From a virus (Duplodnaviria > Heunggongvirae > Uroviricota > Caudoviricetes), in the IMG/VR virus record IMGVR_UViG_2690316248_000008: a stretch of 17,916 nucleotides of DNA. One strand, 5' to 3'. Below, piece by piece: positions 7,748-17,916 of the stretch. A model generated the notes under the pieces. It was not told the origin of the DNA. It did not search any database and was given only the letters and a program-made list of their open reading frames with translations. The translations under genes and the position numbers were made by a program. Each line of letters opens with the position of its first letter. Within the stretch, counting starts at the first letter, position 1.

Positions 7748-8194
7748 CTAAGATTCTGTCGTTGTCTCTAATGAACACCAAGCATTAATTCCCATTTTTG
7801 AGACAGCTATCAACATAATTACTACAGCTGGAGCAATAAATGTTGCTGTTGCCCCCAAAGAACCCGCAATTGCCGAAGAGATCACCCCTACAAAGTATGT
7901 TTTAACATCACCAGTCAGTGCTCCTAAACATTCCCTCTCCTCTGCATATTTATCACCTCCACATACAAAAGCCTTAAACTCTAATTTAAACTGCTCAACA
8001 AACGCTTTTCTTCCCGGCATTTTTGAATTATCACCGCCAAATTGAGCAACTGAACTTGGGCCAGATGCAGTTAGCCATAGCTCAAGAGCCTTTTCTTCAT
8101 CGCCATTTTCGAGAAAATTCCTGACAGATGAAGATTGATACGTTTTTAAAGTGGACAACCAAGACTCAGCATCTTCATTTGGTATAGCAATCAT
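7748..8194 (-). CDS. Hypothetical protein with soluble N-terminal domain and C-terminal membrane anchor; partner of the upstream protease
   Basis: 148 aa. The C-terminal hydrophobic stretch YFVGVISSAIAGSLGATATFIAPAVVIMLIAVSKMGI is about 35 residues, enough for one long helix or a TM hairpin. ATG overlaps the protease stop (ATGA at 8191-8194). AT-rich codon usage, unlike the phage core. Confidence 0.6.
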   Translation of the reverse strand: MIAIPNEDAESWLSTLKTYQSSSVRNFLENGDEEKALELWLTASGPSSVAQFGGDNSKMPGRKAFVEQFKLEFKAFVCGGDKYAEERECLGALTGDVKTYFVGVISSAIAGSLGATATFIAPAVVIMLIAVSKMGINAWCSLETTTES

Positions 8195-8838
8195 AACATA
8201 TCCTTAACATATTCTGCAGAAACCGCATAAGTTGTCTGATGTAGTTCAGCTGGATTAATACCTCCAACCAAAACAGAACCTCCAGAATTATTTGCATAAG
8301 CGCCAACCAAGACGCCTATTACCGAGTCATTTTTTAAATTAAATACAATCGATCCCGATTGACCAGGTCTGGTTTGGATATTTATAACGGCATGTTTAGA
8401 TTGAATATTACTGCTTGAAAGTAAAACTTTTGCACCTATTTTTGCCGTTTGAAATGTCAATACTTTTCTATTTTCATTACAATGTGGGAAACCTAAAATA
8501 CCCACATCTTCACCGACATTAACATCGTCAAGAGTAGCAATTTTTAGGCAAGGTTCATAAACAGGTGCATTTTTAATTTTTAACACACATAAGTCTTTTA
8601 TTGGATCTTCATCAATAACATCAACTCCAATACATTGAAATTTATCAACACTTGTATCCTGATAACTATTAAAGTTATTTATATTAGATGGAGAAATAAC
8701 TAAGTTAGAAGAAAACCCATTAATAACATGGCGGGAAGTAATTATTTTATCCTTAGAAATAAAAAAACCTGTTCCTAAAAAACTAACCAAACCTGCATTA
8801 AGCACGCCAACAACTACGACATATTCAGGACCAATCAT
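8191..8838 (-). CDS. Trypsin-fold (chymotrypsin-like, S1/Trypsin_2-type) serine protease
   Basis: Catalytic triad motifs in canonical order: GTGFFISKDKIITSRHVI (His), DLCVLKI (Asp), PGQSGSIVF (Ser). Start set at the ATG at 8838 with GGAG about 5-8 nt upstream. The ORF-track extension to 8976 would run across the cos-like sequence. Confidence 0.75.
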   Translation of the reverse strand: MIGPEYVVVVGVLNAGLVSFLGTGFFISKDKIITSRHVINGFSSNLVISPSNINNFNSYQDTSVDKFQCIGVDVIDEDPIKDLCVLKIKNAPVYEPCLKIATLDDVNVGEDVGILGFPHCNENRKVLTFQTAKIGAKVLLSSSNIQSKHAVINIQTRPGQSGSIVFNLKNDSVIGVLVGAYANNSGGSVLVGGINPAELHQTTYAVSAEYVKDML

Positions 8839-8921
8839 AACAACTCCATTCTGTAATATGTTATGGACTCTGACTAAGACAATACTTAACCAAACCGTGA
8901 ATATCAAGGTGCAAGCGCGCG

Positions 8922-8940
8922 CTCGTATCCCCGCCACGCC
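8922..8940 (-). other. Putative cos cohesive-end sequence
   Basis: The minus strand reads GGCGTGGCGGGGATACGAG. Its first 13 nt match the 186-type cohesive end as I recall it (GGCGTGGCGGGGA...), and the adjacent AGCGCGCG resembles the sequence next to P2 cos. Orientation relative to Q is as expected. Based on recalled sequences, not a search. Confidence 0.4.
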
Positions 8941-8989
8941 TGCCCGCTTTATGTAGTGGTTTTCATGCAGGAGCATGATCTACGCAAAA

Positions 8990-9282: not shown

Positions 9283-9708
9283 ATGAAAAGCTTTTACGTA
9301 TTAATTTTAATTCTGGTTGCAAGCTTTGTTAGCGTCCCTGTTCAGGCGGTAACAGCTAAAAACTATGAGAAAGGAACTAAAGCTCAACAGAAATCAATAT
9401 CTTACCTTTCATGTGCATTCTATGGCAGTAGCACACAATTAGATCCTAGCTACACGGAGCAAGTACCTACAGCCGATATCAAGATATTACAGAAAGCAGC
9501 TTACCACGCTTACAACGATGCGCTCTCATACTTTGGCTATGAGGAACCAGATCACGAACAACGCATAATTGATTATGCTGAATTTGTGGCGTCGCAAGAA
9601 GCTGTGTTATGGGATAAGCCGGGAATGAATGGAAAGCAGGTAACACTAATTGCTCGTTCTCTCTACAATGAGAGTAACTGTAACTTGTTACTGGACTCAA
9701 TTAAGTAG
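9283..9708 (+). CDS. Hypothetical secreted/periplasmic protein (cargo moron)
   Basis: 141 aa. N-terminal signal peptide MKSFYVLILILVASFVSVPVQA with an AXA-type cleavage site. GAGG RBS upstream. AT-rich; the only plus-strand gene between cos and gene A. Confidence 0.6.
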   Translation: MKSFYVLILILVASFVSVPVQAVTAKNYEKGTKAQQKSISYLSCAFYGSSTQLDPSYTEQVPTADIKILQKAAYHAYNDALSYFGYEEPDHEQRIIDYAEFVASQEAVLWDKPGMNGKQVTLIARSLYNESNCNLLLDSIK

Positions 9709-9867
9709 GAAAAAGATGGTATTTTGCCCGTAGTTTCAACCTTAATCTCCGAACCTATCGCAGAACGGGCGTTCACTCATCAAATAAACGCCACACCTAA
9801 CGCCTCACTGTACTCGTTGTTCAACCTTGCTGACGCCAGAACCAAGTTCAGACGCCAGCAACTTTTC

Positions 9868-10101
9868 TTAATGCAGCCAGCTGTCGTCTTCCCACACCTT
9901 CTGCATAATCTTCATCACTTGTTTTCTTTCTTCGTCCAGTTGCAGTCCGGTCAGTTCCACACCGTTAGAGCTACCTTTGCGGATGCGAATTACCGTTTTG
10001 GGATACAGGGGGCGCAGATTGCGGTAAAGCTCGGATTCAAGGGCGTCCAGGGTAGACTGGCTAATCTTCTGCTCTTTATCGATCATTATTTCAATGCGCA
10101 T
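9868..10101 (-). CDS. DinI-family protein (Tum C-terminal-like)
   Basis: 77 aa from the ATG at 10101. MRIEIMIDK...LDALESEL...KIMQKVWEDDSW resembles E. coli DinI (MRIEV..., ending with an acidic W-containing tail). RBS GAGGTGA overlaps the stop of the upstream gene. Confidence 0.8.
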   Translation of the reverse strand: MRIEIMIDKEQKISQSTLDALESELYRNLRPLYPKTVIRIRKGSSNGVELTGLQLDEERKQVMKIMQKVWEDDSWLH

Positions 10102-10111
10102 AAAGGTCACC

Positions 10112-10300
10112 TCAGCTGATGACATCCATTGAGCGGTTGTATTCGTGGGTTCTGATTTTTGCCATGAGTTCATCTGTCAGTTCAGAAACCCACTGCAAAG
10201 CCAGCCCCTTCTCTTCATCACTACACTCACTAGCCGCTACAAGCTTAAGAAAAAAATCAATGCGCTGGAGCTTCAAAGACTCCAAAAAATAGTCCTGCAT
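10112..10300 (-). CDS. Small SOS-regulated protein, possible Tum-like antirepressor N-terminal part
   Basis: 62 aa from the ATG at 10300, with AGGAGG 4 nt upstream. It is the first gene downstream of the LexA box and 10 bp upstream of the DinI-like gene. Confidence 0.5.
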   Translation of the reverse strand: MQDYFLESLKLQRIDFFLKLVAASECSDEEKGLALQWVSELTDELMAKIRTHEYNRSMDVIS

Positions 10301-10341
10301 CTTTCCTCCTATGACACCACAAGCAATACTGTATACATAAC

Positions 10342-10361
10342 CACTGTTTATATTTACAGTA
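10342..10361. promoter_or_regulatory. LexA operator (SOS box) in the promoter of the small-protein/DinI-like operon
   Basis: CACTGTTTATATTTACAGTA is a perfect CTGT-N8-ACAG palindrome with an AT-rich core. Candidate -35 TTTACA and -10 TATACT on the minus strand overlap it. Confidence 0.7.
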
Positions 10362-10453
10362 TATAATAATCTTACTGATGTAAAACGTTTTTTTACGTTC
10401 ATTAGCCTGATATGCCTGGTATTATTAAGAGCACGAATTGTTAACCCGCGTAA

Positions 10454-12868
10454 TTAATACAGGTTTCGCCACTTATCATCTTCCTGCAAACGCTGGTTCC
10501 GATAGAAGATACGCAGGCCTGCTCCTGACGGAATACTGCCGCCGCGAAGGAGTAAATCGACCTCTTTCTCGCTGCCATTAAATCCTCTGGACTTCAGTTC
10601 ATAGACGAGCTGCTGTCGCTGATGGTCTATAATTCGCTGTTTGTAGTCTTTACGCCGTTTCGGTTTCACCAGGCGTAACCTTGCAGCCAGTTCCCGGCGC
10701 TCTTTTTTGCTCATACTGTGCAGGTAATCGTGCAACTCCTTGTCATCCATGCGGGTAATGTCCGTCCTGGTATCCCCATCAGCTGATTTGTCTTTCCCTT
10801 GTTGGTTCAAATTTTCAGCAAGGGGACAGTTATTGCCACGAGTCCAAGGGGCGCAAGCGCCCTGGTCGGCTGCCGCCTCCTGAACGTCAACGGCTTTACG
10901 AACCATTTTCCACTTCACTGCATGAGTGCAGATCTTGCCTTCTGCAATGGGTGACCAGATGCCATAAATACGAATACCGTGATCGCCATAGGCGGTCGGC
11001 TCTTCATTGATTTCATAAGCGGTTCTGATCAAGTGATATTTGCGAGGAACCAGCACGCCGCCCTGCCTCATAATGTAGGTGGCAAAACAGCCAGCATCAG
11101 CAGCAGCCAGGATGGCATCAAGGCGCGGGTTATCCAGTACCGGCGCACCTGCTTTTTTGTCACCCTGCTGCCTTGCCGCCTGACCAGCCAACAACCGCAG
11201 TTCACGGTAAGCCTGACGCCCTGGAATACCAAAGAAGCGGAATTGCTGAACACGATGCAGAGACGCCCAGGCATTAACGTATTCAGCGTTATCACGCAGG
11301 GATTTACCCGTTTCCTTGCTGATCTCGCCAGCCAGACCACGCCCGTCAATGTTCTTACTGATGTATTTCGCGATGTAGCTTGTCGGCGTTCCTTTGCGCG
11401 GGTTTATCAGCTCAGATTTAAAGCGTGGACCAGTGTTATTACCCAGTTCCTCGCGGTCTTCACGGATGGCAAACTTACGCAACAATGCAGTAATGGCGCG
11501 GCGGTCTTTTTTGCGCATAAAACACAACAGGTGCCAGTGAACTGTACCGTCATGATGCGGCTCAGCCACCCGCACGCCATACCAGCGCAACCCGGCTTTG
11601 TGCATCGCCTTACGAAATGCAGCAAACATGCCGACCAGATAATCGCTGCTTTGTCTTACCGTCGCATTTGTCCAGGTTGGGTTTGGTCTGCCGTTATTGA
11701 GCGTGGAATGGAAACGTGACGGACAGGTAATGGTGTAGAAAACGGCGCAGTCACCGCGCATTTCCGCGATAAGCTCCAGACCTTTAACACAGGCCATCAT
11801 CTCATTGCGGCGGTGCGCCGGGTTGCTGCTGCTGGCGTTTACCACGTCTTCCATATCCAGCGTGTCGCCCTCTTCGTTCACCAGTTCATGAGAACGGAAA
11901 AACTCCAGTGACTTGCGGCGCTGCTCACGTTTATGCATCACGGCTTCATAGCTGACATAGGGAGATGCTTTTTTGCTGACCAGGCAGACAGCACGCAACT
12001 GCTCTTCCCGCCATTCGCAACGCATTTTCCATAATTTCCGGTACCACCAGTCGGCGCACAACATACGCGCCAGCGAACCCGGAATGAGTTCATAGGGCAC
12101 GGGTTTACGGCGGTTTCTTTTCCGACGGAGTTGCTCAAACGCAGGCGGGATGACATCCAGACGCAGGGTTTCCGCTGCCACCTTTTCCCATGTCTTGCGG
12201 ATTTCTTCTGGCTTAACGTCATCGGTGGCATACAAATCACCACAAGCTGCATCAAGGCACATGCTCATATGCGCAGCGACAAGGGTAGACAGGCGTTTCA
12301 CCTGATCCTGACTCATTTCAGGCAGAATCAGCAGGCCGTCCAGCCCTACATGGCTTGCCATAAAACGAAAAGATGCAGATAGCTGGCTGTCGCGTACATG
12401 CTCCAGTCGTTCCAGACATGGCTTAATCGTCTCACGTAAATAGCGGGAATAAGCCTTTGGCCTGCCCAGGCTGCTGAAGTATTCAATACGTTGCATCAGC
12501 GGCTTGCTGATATGGGAAGGCTGGGCGTTGACGTCCGCCAGAATGACCATATCCGGATTAAAACGCTGCTGCTCATGCGCCAGCTTTGCCCGGCTAATGA
12601 GCTTATCCTGCTCCATTTCGTGCTGGACAGGATCACGTGATTCATTAAAAAAATAACGCTCCCAGACCTGATCACTCAGTGCCTCGCGGCGCAACTGTTC
12701 CTGCTCGTTATCGGCAGCGTACAGAGTGATCAGGTTTGAAAGCGCAGAAACCGGCGCAACTTCCGCCGGGTCCAGATAAGGGTTAATGGCCTTTTTCGGG
12801 CTGTTCCATGAGAACGCTGCGGCAGCCTCGTTAAAGCCGCAGCAGTTGTTCATATCGGCATGGCTCAT
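10454..12868 (-). CDS. A: Replication initiation endonuclease (P2/186 gpA-like, rolling-circle initiator)
   Basis: 804 aa, the largest early gene, in the gpA position downstream of the early operon. Call rests on size, position and overall resemblance to P2/186 A proteins; no single motif was verified. ATG overlaps the Dam stop (ATGA). Confidence 0.85.
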
Positions 12869-15898: not shown

Positions 15899-16468
15899 AT
15901 GAATTTGGAGAAAGGCGGACGAGGCGCCATAGAGCGCATGGTAGAAGCTTATGGATTCAAGACTCGACAGGCGTTGTGCGATCATTTAGGAATCTCTAAA
16001 AGTACACTCGCCACACGCTACATGCGTGACTCATTCCCAGCAGAATGGGTAATCCAGTGCGCCCTTGAAACGGGCACCTCGCTTAATTGGCTCACAACCG
16101 GACATGGTTCAAAGCAAACTTCAGGTAATACAAATACTATGGAAGTTGCTAAATATGTATTATCTGATGGTGCCTTGCGTGAAGACGGTTTTTATATTTT
16201 TGATAAGGGATTTCTACCCTCTACGTTTAAAAAACCTTTTGTCATCACAGATAACAATTCTGAATTTATTTGTGATAAAGAATTTGATGACATACGTGAT
16301 GGTAAATGGGTAATAAGTATTGATGGCGAAGTAACGATCCGTGACATTACTCGTTTACCCGGTGGAAGAATCTTCGTCGAGGGTGGAAACAGAGCCTTCG
16401 AATGTAAGATAGAAGACATTGAAATAATTGGTAAAATTATAAGTTTAACAGTTAAATATGTTAGATAA
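15899..16468 (+). CDS. cI: CI immunity repressor (phage 186 CI-like)
   Basis: 189 aa from the ATG at 15899 (GGAG 6 nt upstream). IERMVEAYGF...STLATRYMRD...QCALETGTSLNWLTTGHG parallels the 186 CI N-terminal domain as I recall it. Confidence 0.8.
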   Translation: MNLEKGGRGAIERMVEAYGFKTRQALCDHLGISKSTLATRYMRDSFPAEWVIQCALETGTSLNWLTTGHGSKQTSGNTNTMEVAKYVLSDGALREDGFYIFDKGFLPSTFKKPFVITDNNSEFICDKEFDDIRDGKWVISIDGEVTIRDITRLPGGRIFVEGGNRAFECKIEDIEIIGKIISLTVKYVR

Positions 16469-16483
16469 TACCGGGAGGAAACT

Positions 16484-16675
16484 ATGCTTGGTAAAGTATT
16501 TTTTGTGGTTTTATCATGCTCTTTGTTATTAAGCCCACTAACTACCTATGCTAAAAATTATCCTTGTTCTGGGAAAAAGGGAGGTGTCTCTCACTGTACC
16601 TCCGATGGAAAATTTGTTTGCAATGATGGAACTATTAGTAAATCCAAAAAAATCTGTACTAAAAACTCACGATAA
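16484..16675 (+). CDS. Small secreted cysteine-rich protein (moron between cI and int)
   Basis: 63 aa with signal peptide [23 protein letters not shown]. The mature part of about 40 aa has four Cys. Strong RBS GGGAGG 15 bp after the cI stop, so it is probably co-transcribed with cI. Confidence 0.55.
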
Positions 16676-16810
16676 CTTTTGCTTTTATATCTGCGTCTAA
16701 AATAAAAATGAGCCGCAGGTTAACCGCAAAAGTTACATGCTCACATAGCAAAAAGAATAGCCAACTTCATTATGGCTTCAGTGAGATGTATGGTCGTAGG
16801 ATTTCATACA

Positions 16811-16839
16811 TTGACACTGGTTATACATACAGTAAAAAT
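16811..16839 (+). promoter_or_regulatory. Candidate int-proximal promoter with embedded LexA-like dyad
   Basis: Perfect -35 TTGACA (16811-16816), 17-bp spacer, -10 AAAAAT (16834-16839). The spacer holds CTGG-TTATACAT-ACAG (16817-16832), which fits CTG-N10-CAG with one mismatch to CTGT. Confidence 0.35.
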
Positions 16840-16863
16840 GCTCTCTACTGGAGGGCATTTTTT

Positions 16864-17916
16864 ATGGCAGTACGAAAACTCACCACTGGGAAATGGCTTT
16901 GCGAATGTTACCCCGCCGGACGAAGTGGGCGTCGTGTGCGTAAACAATTCGCCACCAAAGGCGAAGCACTGGCTTTTGAGCGCCACACGATGGAAGAAAC
17001 CGAAGCAAAGCCCTGGCTGGGTGAATCAGTGGATCGTCGAACACTGAAAGACGTGGTTGAGCTATGGTTCAAACTACATGGTAAATCTCTGACAGCTGGG
17101 CAGCATGTCTATGACAAATTGCTGTTGATGGTTGACGCTCTGGGCAATCCTCTTGCAACCGATCTCACCTCTAAAATGTTTGCCCATTATCGAGATAAAC
17201 GCCTGACAGGCGAGATCTACTTCAGCGAGAAATGGAAGAAAGGAGCAAGCCCGGTCACCATTAACCTGGAGCAAAGCTATCTAAGTAGTGTTTTTAGCGA
17301 ACTATCCCGTCTGGGCGAATGGTCGTATCCGAACCCACTGGAGAACATGCGAAAATTCACCATCGCAGAAAAAGAGATGGCATGGCTTACCCATGAGCAG
17401 ATTGTTGAATTGCTGGCTGATTGCAAACGTCAGGACCCAATTCTGGCACTGGTAGTTAAGATATGCTTAAGCACAGGCGCACGCTGGCGTGAAGCCGTAA
17501 ATCTTACCCGCTCACAGGTGACCAAATACCGAATTACCTTTGTCAGAACGAAGGGGAAGAAAAACAGAAGCATCCCTATCAGTAAAGAGCTTTACGAAGA
17601 GATCATGGCGCTTGATGGGTTCAATTTCTTCACAGACTGCTATTTTCAATTTTTATCCGTGATGGAAAAAACGTCTATCGTGCTCCCTCGCGGTCAACTC
17701 ACACACGTTCTGCGCCATACGTTTGCGGCGCACTTCATGATGTCGGGTGGAAACATTCTGGCCTTACAAAAAATTCTCGGACACCACGATATAAAAATGA
17801 CTATGCGTTACGCACATCTGGCACCGGATCATCTGGAAACGGCGCTCCGTTTCAATCCTCTGGCAACGCTGCCAAGTGGCGACAAAGTGGCGGCAGCAGT
17901 TGGCATTACCCCGTAA
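16864..17916 (+). CDS. int: Tyrosine integrase (P2/186 Int family)
   Basis: 350 aa from the ATG at 16864 (GGAGGG upstream). MAVRKLTTGKW...RRVRKQFATKGEALAFE at the N-terminus and C-terminal CLSTGARWREA, HVLRHTFA, MRYAHLAP (catalytic Tyr region) closely parallel P2 Int as I recall it. The 16708 start in the ORF track is an upstream in-frame extension. Confidence 0.9.
   Translation: MAVRKLTTGKWLCECYPAGRSGRRVRKQFATKGEALAFERHTMEETEAKPWLGESVDRRTLKDVVELWFKLHGKSLTAGQHVYDKLLLMVDALGNPLATDLTSKMFAHYRDKRLTGEIYFSEKWKKGASPVTINLEQSYLSSVFSELSRLGEWSYPNPLENMRKFTIAEKEMAWLTHEQIVELLADCKRQDPILALVVKICLSTGARWREAVNLTRSQVTKYRITFVRTKGKKNRSIPISKELYEEIMALDGFNFFTDCYFQFLSVMEKTSIVLPRGQLTHVLRHTFAAHFMMSGGNILALQKILGHHDIKMTMRYAHLAPDHLETALRFNPLATLPSGDKVAAAVGITP

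Follow-up and report, generated by a model that had tools for sequence, protein, structure and literature searches.

Organization of the tumA-tumB locus

The DNA analysed here (the window) is a 17,916-nt stretch of a Caudoviricetes sequence, and the module of interest lies on its minus strand, where it is read from the 10361 side toward position 9868, with tumA first and tumB second. The module stands directly 3' of the P2-type replication gene A, whose open reading frame (ORF) spans 10454-12868, and this position after gene A is common to the module described here, 186, Fels-2 and vB_EcoM-813R9. The elements listed in the original prediction, a LexA box and two ORFs, were all found in place on the minus strand between 9868 and 10361.

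Following the minus strand, a putative -35 hexamer TTTACA (10379-10384) and a putative -10 hexamer TACTGT (10356-10361) mark the candidate tumA promoter, which is regarded as the equivalent of 186 p95; the -35 was assigned by analogy with the annotated p95, and the -10 has the same hexamer and position as the p95 -10. This -10 lies within LexA box 1, TACTGTAAATATAAACAGTG, at 10342-10361 (minus strand), which is followed by the imperfect LexA box 2, CAGTGGTTATGTATACAGTA, at 10327-10346 (minus strand). The Shine-Dalgarno (SD) sequence of tumA, GGAGGAAAG, was read from the sequence at 10301-10309 and is identical in Fels-2; it precedes tumA itself (10112-10300, including the TGA stop), which encodes a predicted antirepressor of 62 aa homologous to residues 4-44 of 186 Tum. 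The SD of tumB, GAGGTGA (10107-10113), likewise read from the sequence, overlaps the tumA stop codon, so translational coupling of the two genes is likely. The second gene, tumB (9868-10101), encodes a 77-aa protein of the DinI family (Pfam PF06183). The description of two genes 10 bp apart in different frames proved exact: the tumA stop and the tumB ATG are separated by exactly 10 nt (10102-10111), with a +1 frame shift between the ORFs.

RNA folding places a stem-loop just 3' of tumB, at 9827-9861, with no strand assigned to it. As there is a T-run on the plus strand and no U-tract on the tumB strand, this structure may be the terminator of a convergent transcript, or a bidirectional terminator; the terminator scan called neither the stem-loop nor any other terminator for the operon. 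The homology to other phages stops in the same area, at about 9797 or 9870. On the plus strand, cI (15899-16468) encodes the immunity repressor of the phage, with Pfam matches to Phage_CI_repr (8.1e-34) and Phage_CI_C (7.7e-29) and a match to the solved structure of 186 CI (2FJR, E 3.3e-31). With a CI of this type, the window contains the repressor at which TumA is presumed to be directed.

The putative promoter and its double LexA operator

The CTGT-N8-ACAG core of LexA box 1, CTGTAAATATAAACAG (minus strand, 10344-10359), is the sole instance of this pattern in the window, where 0.27 would be expected by chance. LexA sites were scored with a position weight matrix trained on 20 E. coli LexA sites; the training sites score 12.5-26.2 bits, and in shuffled windows the matrix finds a mean of 0.115 sites of at least 14 bits. 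With this matrix, box 1, taken as the 20-mer 10342-10361, scores 22.2 bits, which falls within the span of the training sites, and box 2 scores 16.2 bits. The perfect LexA box originally predicted was confirmed.

The same prediction held that the box overlaps a plausible promoter, and here the result is divided. The putative -35 and -10 hexamers are separated by a spacer of 17 nt, and they mirror the annotated 186 p95 (TTCACA-18-TACTGT), whose -10 also lies inside the LexA box; this part of the claim stands, and the plausibility of the promoter comes from its likeness to p95. The generic sigma-70 scan, on the other hand, called no promoter for the operon, the hexamers being weak in comparison with the consensus.

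Box 2, which the original prediction had overlooked, starts 15 nt after box 1, so that the two 16-nt cores have one base in common. By this geometry the two boxes can be classed as a colicin-type double operator. The second box was seen in 23-24 of 40 related loci, while the Pantoea/Erwinia-type loci carry a single LexA box, at -40. A 55-nt query taken from the operator matched 215 plasmids, and on small mobilisable plasmids the match lies 40-45 nt 5' of colicin N, colicin E1-like and klebicin/cloacin-like genes. Over 42-48 nt, the boxes with their flanks share 86-88% identity with the promoters of the colicin N, E1-like and klebicin genes, and in these promoters the two boxes score about 22 and 12.7-17.0 bits, with the same 15-nt offset and with a box 2 that opens with CAGTGG at the junction, as it does here. 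The colicin promoters differ in what they drive, a bacteriocin rather than a prophage antirepressor, and their -35 region and leader are unlike those of the tumA promoter.

[quoted passage not shown] By analogy, we infer that repression of the Fels-2-type promoter may be tighter than that of 186 p95, or its release later. The likeness to the colicin operators may reflect common ancestry or exchange with Col plasmids, or it may be convergence under the constraint that overlapping boxes impose, and the sequences fit both explanations. The literature search returned no paper noting a colicin-like tumA operator, the primary Fels-2 study of 2002 lying outside its coverage.

TumA and the N-terminal region of 186 Tum

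The homology between TumA and 186 Tum becomes visible with profile methods, which are needed because BLASTP of TumA against 186 Tum gives no alignment. A profile search with TumA, run against 1.84 billion cluster representatives, yielded 88 relatives of small size, and a 45-sequence alignment of relatives from this search served as the input for hhalign, which matched the TumA profile to the 186-type Tum N-terminal family with a probability of 96.8% (E 2.9e-10). Residues 4-44 of one protein pair with residues 4-44 of the other, in collinear order and with no gaps. With shallow alignments (Neff 1.3) the hhalign probability was just 28%, and the relationship became clear only after diverse members had been added. 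The comparison of ORF1 with 186 Tum that had been proposed at the outset therefore gave a positive answer by profile, and BLASTP alone would wrongly have spoken against the relationship. The same profile search also matched P0294, a NACHT-HEAT-repeat protein of 1205 aa, and this match was rejected as a resemblance between repeat hairpins and not homology.

Further comparisons of the same two proteins agree with the profile alignment. The HMM of the TumA family gives 186 Tum 33.4 bits, against a maximum of 14.8 bits among 10,000 shuffles. Independently, PHROG places TumA in phrog_698 (3.6e-38), with cross-matches to phrog_8554 and phrog_1993, and PSP3 TumA and the N-terminal region of 186 Tum fall into the phrog_1993 subfamily, which the window TumA matches only at E 0.0022; reciprocally, the N-terminal region of 186 Tum matches phrog_698 at 5.9e-6 over the same residues. 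A motif common to TumA, 186 Tum and PSP3 TumA, C-x7-AL-x-[LW]-[IV]-[AS]-E-[LI], can be picked out by eye. On these alignments, the homology of TumA to the N-terminal region of 186 Tum is genuine.

Pfam and NCBIfam hold no model for TumA, and databases label the protein as 'hypothetical protein', as 'unknown function' (PHROG) or, oddly, as 'levan regulatory protein'. AlphaFold2 models TumA as a two-helix hairpin (helices 2-23 and 28-61, pLDDT 90.5), for which Foldseek against the PDB returned only generic helical hairpins, all with E >1. A sequence search of the PDB with the TumA profile found neither a structure of TumA nor one of a Tum N-terminal domain.

TumB, a phage member of the DinI family

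The DinI-like nature claimed for the second gene is confirmed by its match to Pfam DinI (PF06183), with E 6.6e-23 and 81.3 bits against a gathering cutoff of 24.2. TumB scores 42.7 bits against the NCBIfam DinI equivalog, far under its cutoff of 111, and it is thus a phage paralogue and not the equivalog of the chromosomal protein; E. coli DinI (PDB 1GHH, 7YWA) is nevertheless a member of the same Pfam family. In PHROG, TumB falls into phrog_189, 'RecA filament binding protein DinI'. TumB aligns at 41% identity with residues 71-145 of 186 Tum, a span that begins exactly at the internal GTG start of the annotated 77-aa 'truncated Tum', and the C-terminal half of Tum matches the sequence of 1GHH. 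The counterparts of TumB are STM2726.1 of Fels-2, which is itself annotated as similar to PSP3 TumB, and PSP3 TumB. TumB would be an accessory part of the module rather than its antirepressor.

Distribution of the module and its conserved core

The DNA of the module is present in 1126 of 5426 complete E. coli genomes (about 21%), and the module region is 100% identical to the chromosomes of E. coli SF-468 and APEC O1:K1:H7. The module also occurs in dozens of Klebsiella, Salmonella, Escherichia and Yersinia phages. A scan for related loci that took one genome per species yielded the 40 loci mentioned above, which come from Escherichia, Citrobacter, Enterobacter, Klebsiella, Raoultella, Kluyvera, Serratia, Pantoea, Erwinia, Tatumella, Izhakiella and others, and in which TumA identity ranges from 65% to 100%.

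A LexA box of at least 17 bits precedes tumA in all 39 of the related loci with upstream sequence, each from a different species, lying 40-97 nt 5' of the tumA start in every one of them, and it is almost the only site of such strength in about 15 kb per locus. Eighteen of the 40 loci lack tumB, and in a few others the gene shows visible decay. Given a box in 39/39 loci and the loss of tumB from 18/40, the LexA box and tumA are the conserved core of the module, with the DinI-like gene an optional rider. The optional status of tumB agrees with the assignment of the PSP3 antirepressor to the upstream gene and with results from the Gifsy prophages, where deletion of the dinI homologue had no significant effect on induction (PMC3121763).

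Relation to known prophage induction modules

Essentially the same module is found in Fels-2, where TumA (STM2728) is 98.4% identical to that of the window, the SD and the 10-nt gap are shared, the DinI gene STM2726.1 follows, and the whole stands after gene A behind a double LexA operator of 22.2 and 15.3 bits. Fels-2 differs in being a prophage of Salmonella LT2, the host here being E. coli, in a CI that is only 38% identical, in a box 2 that is unlike at two positions, and in what lies downstream, namely the orf97-like STM2726 in Fels-2 and a PDC-M35 candidate defence pair together with a secreted protein in the window. Bunny et al. reportedly traced the lethality of lexA null mutations to the Fels-2 tum homologue.

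PSP3 has the same order of parts after gene A, a LexA-boxed promoter followed by a roughly 60-aa TumA and a 77-aa DinI-like TumB, and its annotation describes tumA as 'similar to 5' end 186 tum; UV induction of prophage' and tumB as 'similar to dinI and 3' end of 186 tum'. It differs from the window in the subfamily of its TumA, in having one strong LexA box (28.2 bits), and in that tumA and tumB are in the same frame, with the stop plus one codon between them. In the passages of PMC3121763 (Lemire et al. 2011) that deal with these phages, which take the Fels-2 tum facts from Bunny, Liu & Roth 2002, a stop codon is described as dividing the tum of Fels-2 and PSP3, so that an antirepressor gene lies upstream and a homologue of dinI downstream; for PSP3, the placing of the antirepressor activity in the upstream gene is relayed there from a personal communication. 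The strain used in the Salmonella SOS-regulon study PMC8072944 is one without Fels-2.

Phage 186 shares with the window the LexA box over the -10, homologous antirepressor and DinI-like regions, the genomic position and the type of CI. It differs in making one 146-aa polypeptide, together with internal-start products that include a 77-aa DinI-like form, where the window has two genes; in its single box of 27.1 bits; and in a roughly 25-residue linker that is absent here. In 186, Tum is expressed from p95, which LexA represses; Tum sequesters CI, and the resulting derepression of pR is reversible (PMC7708051). The dinI-gfoA/gftA operons of Gifsy-1, -2 and -3 can be compared by operon logic only: they are likewise LexA-repressed, lie outside the immunity region and pair a small antirepressor with a DinI homologue, leaving the repressor uncleaved (PMC3121763), but dinI comes first and the phages are lambdoid, with an unrelated repressor family.

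TumA and the CI repressors with which it is paired

The 186-type CI repressor is a 14-mer wheel, and to our knowledge no structure of a Tum-CI complex exists. In phages whose TumA is 98-100% identical to that of the window, among them vB_EcoM-813R9, the Kp48xx series, ST11-OXA245phi3.1, Cartapus, RE2010 and Fels-2, CI is only 38-57% identical overall. This divergence is unevenly distributed over the repressor: compared with the window, the CIs of these Fels-2-type TumA phages are 68-78% identical in the N-terminal helix-turn-helix (HTH) domain and 25-43% in the C-terminal oligomerisation domain. For phages with 186- or PSP3-type Tum (186, PSP3 and YenM_06.16-2), the corresponding values are 40-48% and 29-41%. 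Across 29 genomic loci the median identities are 83% for TumA, 66% for the CI N-terminal domain and 35% for the CI C-terminal domain, in a sample that is phylogenetically structured and for a comparison in which DNA-binding domains are generally the better conserved. Within the family, the identity of TumA and that of the CI N-terminal domain showed no significant correlation (Spearman 0.23, p 0.23, n = 29). The pattern at the level of classes tentatively suggests that TumA may recognise the N-terminal domain of CI, and that one TumA could serve heteroimmune repressors.

A predicted SOS induction module and its alternatives

The locus brings together a LexA operator, a homologue of the Tum N-terminal region, a DinI moiety and a site after gene A in a phage with a 186-type CI. 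It is read here, with a probability of roughly 85%, as the SOS-induction module of a 186/Fels-2-type P2-like (Peduoviridae) E. coli prophage, in the naturally split tumA-tumB form. The Tum-type module proposed in the original prediction is thereby supported, through the homology of TumA and TumB, the LexA box and the counterparts in Fels-2 and PSP3. In an undamaged lysogen, LexA would occupy the double operator over the -10 region of the promoter and keep the operon off. DNA damage would activate RecA and lead to the self-cleavage of LexA, upon which the operon would be transcribed. TumA would then bind the 186-type CI of the prophage and block it from its operators, and the early lytic promoter would be derepressed, leading to a prophage induction that is reversible and proceeds without CI cleavage. 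TumB, translated from its own SD, would probably modulate RecA filaments, and hence the strength or duration of the SOS signal. For the present copy, LexA binding, SOS induction and the binding of TumA to CI are predicted by analogy with 186, PSP3 and Fels-2.

The original prediction had left open whether tum is split or frameshifted here, or whether the phage encodes a standalone DinI-like RecA modulator, and the evidence selects a split tum over both of the other options, with ORF1 as the Tum N-terminal part and ORF2 as the DinI-like C-terminal half. Measured against 186, the halves are indeed 10 nt apart in different frames, and many database entries for 186-type Tum are truncated or frameshifted, which would suit a fused gene broken by a frameshift or nonsense mutation in which only the DinI-like remnant still functions. 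Such decay is, however, extremely improbable, and already effectively refuted by the sequence comparisons. The downstream gene has its own SD and ATG, and the split form is widespread, being found in Fels-2, PSP3, dozens of phages and the 1126 E. coli genomes; TumA has been kept at 65-100% identity over more than 15 genera. The fusion into one polypeptide that defines 186 Tum is interrupted here by the TGA stop, the 10-nt gap and the +1 frame shift, and no fused protein of about 146 aa was found among the 88 TumA cluster representatives, whose small members are all standalone. In the related loci that have tumB, the gap is 9-13 nt long, contains a purine-rich SD and occurs in all three relative frames, which fits neither one inherited lesion nor a conserved recoding signal; a programmed frameshift or readthrough that would yield a fused Tum was rejected because both the length of the gap and the relative frame vary among relatives. 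Only the 186-type clade has the fused Tum, in about 28 phage records at ≥90% identity, and that clade also has standalone 'Tum protein' genes of 63-64 aa, one of which lies directly before a methylase gene, without a dinI homologue. As judged from these comparisons, tumA and tumB are a natural split form and a very common arrangement, not a broken gene.

Two further explanations concern what the products do. Of the two products, only TumB has a curated family, and ORF1 is labelled 'hypothetical' or of unknown function in databases, so the operon might be an SOS-modulating 'moron' in which TumB works on host RecA, while ORF1, a leader peptide or some unrelated small protein, leaves CI alone. 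This is highly unlikely in view of the homology of ORF1 to the Tum N-terminal region, the invariant pairing of tumA with the LexA box, both of which 18 of the 40 loci keep without tumB, and the existence of the 186-type locus with TumA only; moreover, CI is of the non-cleavable 186 type, so an antirepressor is needed for SOS induction (PMC7708051). The other explanation accepts TumA as the inducer and gives it a target other than CI, such as LexA, RecA, Apl/Cox or a host factor, and it would easily explain how near-identical TumA proteins coexist with CIs that are so different. It is improbable all the same, since 186 Tum acts directly on the DNA binding of CI (PMC7708051; PMC3121763; annotation of the 186 record) and since the N-terminal domain of the CIs paired with Fels-2-type TumA is much more alike than that of the CIs paired with other Tum subfamilies, which leaves a common CI surface available to TumA. 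An SOS-induction module of the split tumA-tumB type, with TumA directed against CI, is therefore the preferred reading.

Implications for P2-like prophages

The module is already known from P2-like prophages of the Fels-2/PSP3 type, as their tumA-tumB module for SOS induction, and because its biology is textbook knowledge for 186-like phages, the value of the present analysis lies chiefly in annotation. Roughly one in five complete E. coli genomes carries TumA as a 'hypothetical' protein, as do many prophages of Klebsiella and Salmonella, and its recognition flags P2-like prophages as SOS-inducible. Such predicted inducibility matters for induction by antibiotics and for the mobilisation of cargo, which in the present phage is a candidate defence system.

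Two modest leads go further. The occurrence of a near-invariant TumA together with very different CIs points to a conserved target surface and to possible cross-induction of heteroimmune prophages, and the LexA operator, being double and colicin-like, may help to set when induction occurs. Taken together, they allow a tentative and rather doubtful proposal, in which Fels-2-type TumA is a broad-spectrum antirepressor directed at the N-terminal HTH of CI and capable of inducing P2-like prophages in trans, under a colicin-type double LexA operator shared with Col plasmids by descent or exchange. If this were true, the double operator would raise the SOS threshold for induction, or delay it, relative to 186 and PSP3 with their single box, and an SOS-induced P2-like prophage could trans-induce other P2-like prophages residing in the same cell.

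Limits and gene content of the tum operon

Homologues of TumA, some of which are named 'Levan regulatory protein' or 'levan regulatory domain protein' in database sources, are often lengthened to 84-109 aa by gene callers, which start them at an ATG further 5' (position 10402 in the window). Such extensions are almost certainly spurious, because this ATG lies upstream of the putative LexA-controlled tumA promoter. At the other end of the operon, the stem-loop located 3' of tumB (9827-9861) carries its T-run on the + strand (…CAGCAACTTTTCTT) and thus looks more like the terminator of a convergent + strand transcript than that of the tum operon itself.

The dinI-like gene is not a constant companion of tumA. 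In the scan of P2-like prophages with one genome per species (L017-L056), 18 of the 40 loci have tumA and its LexA box but lack a dinI-like gene, and in a 186-type tumA locus without this gene (L057/L058) a DNA methylase gene comes next. Some of the loci that lack it (L026, L036 and L056) contain a sequence like the post-tumB hairpin directly 3' of the tumA stop codon, as a clean deletion of tumB would leave it.

The TumA profile also matched eight stretches of P0294, a 1205-aa NACHT/HEAT-repeat STAND protein (E 3.6e-7). These matches fall within its HEAT repeats, and the TumA hairpin therefore resembles a HEAT unit; this likeness was judged to be analogy and P0294 was rejected as a TumA homologue. 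Among the CI repressors, those of the Klebsiella phages Kp4860-7 and ST11-OXA245phi3.1 and of PSP3 (L008, L009 and L014) are about 286 aa long and contain a tandem pair of Phage_CI_repr HTH domains at the N-terminus rather than a single one.

Cargo genes and small ORFs

The P2 variable hotspot, which separates the portal gene from the tum operon, holds two cargo genes on the minus strand (7748-8976), in the position taken by STM2726 in Fels-2 and by orf97 in 186. The pair matches the PADLOC candidate defence system PDC-M35: the peptidase, which is trypsin-like, matches PDC-M35A (E 8e-94), and its 148-aa partner PDC-M35B (E 4.3e-58). Two + strand ORFs with signal-peptide-like N-termini, one of 141 aa convergent with tumB (9283-9708) and a cysteine-rich one of 63 aa between cI and int (16484-16675), are probably morons; neither had a match in the family search.

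A LexA-box-like site upstream of int

Besides the tum box, the window has another strong site of this kind on the + strand, CACTGGTTATACATACAGTA (16815-16834, within 16810-16866), which scores 23.0 bits, more than the tum box. A promoter-like TTGACA ... AAAAAT encloses the site in its 17-nt spacer, and the true start of the integrase gene (ATG 16866, + strand) lies about 30 nt downstream of the site. Klebsiella phage 4LV2017 keeps the entire element 5' of int, from ATACATTGACA through the int ATG, whereas the sequences upstream of it are unrelated to those of the window, and the same site is present in the prophage locus L017. CACTGGTTATACATACAGTA could place the int promoter under SOS control; such a promoter is not among the features of 186.
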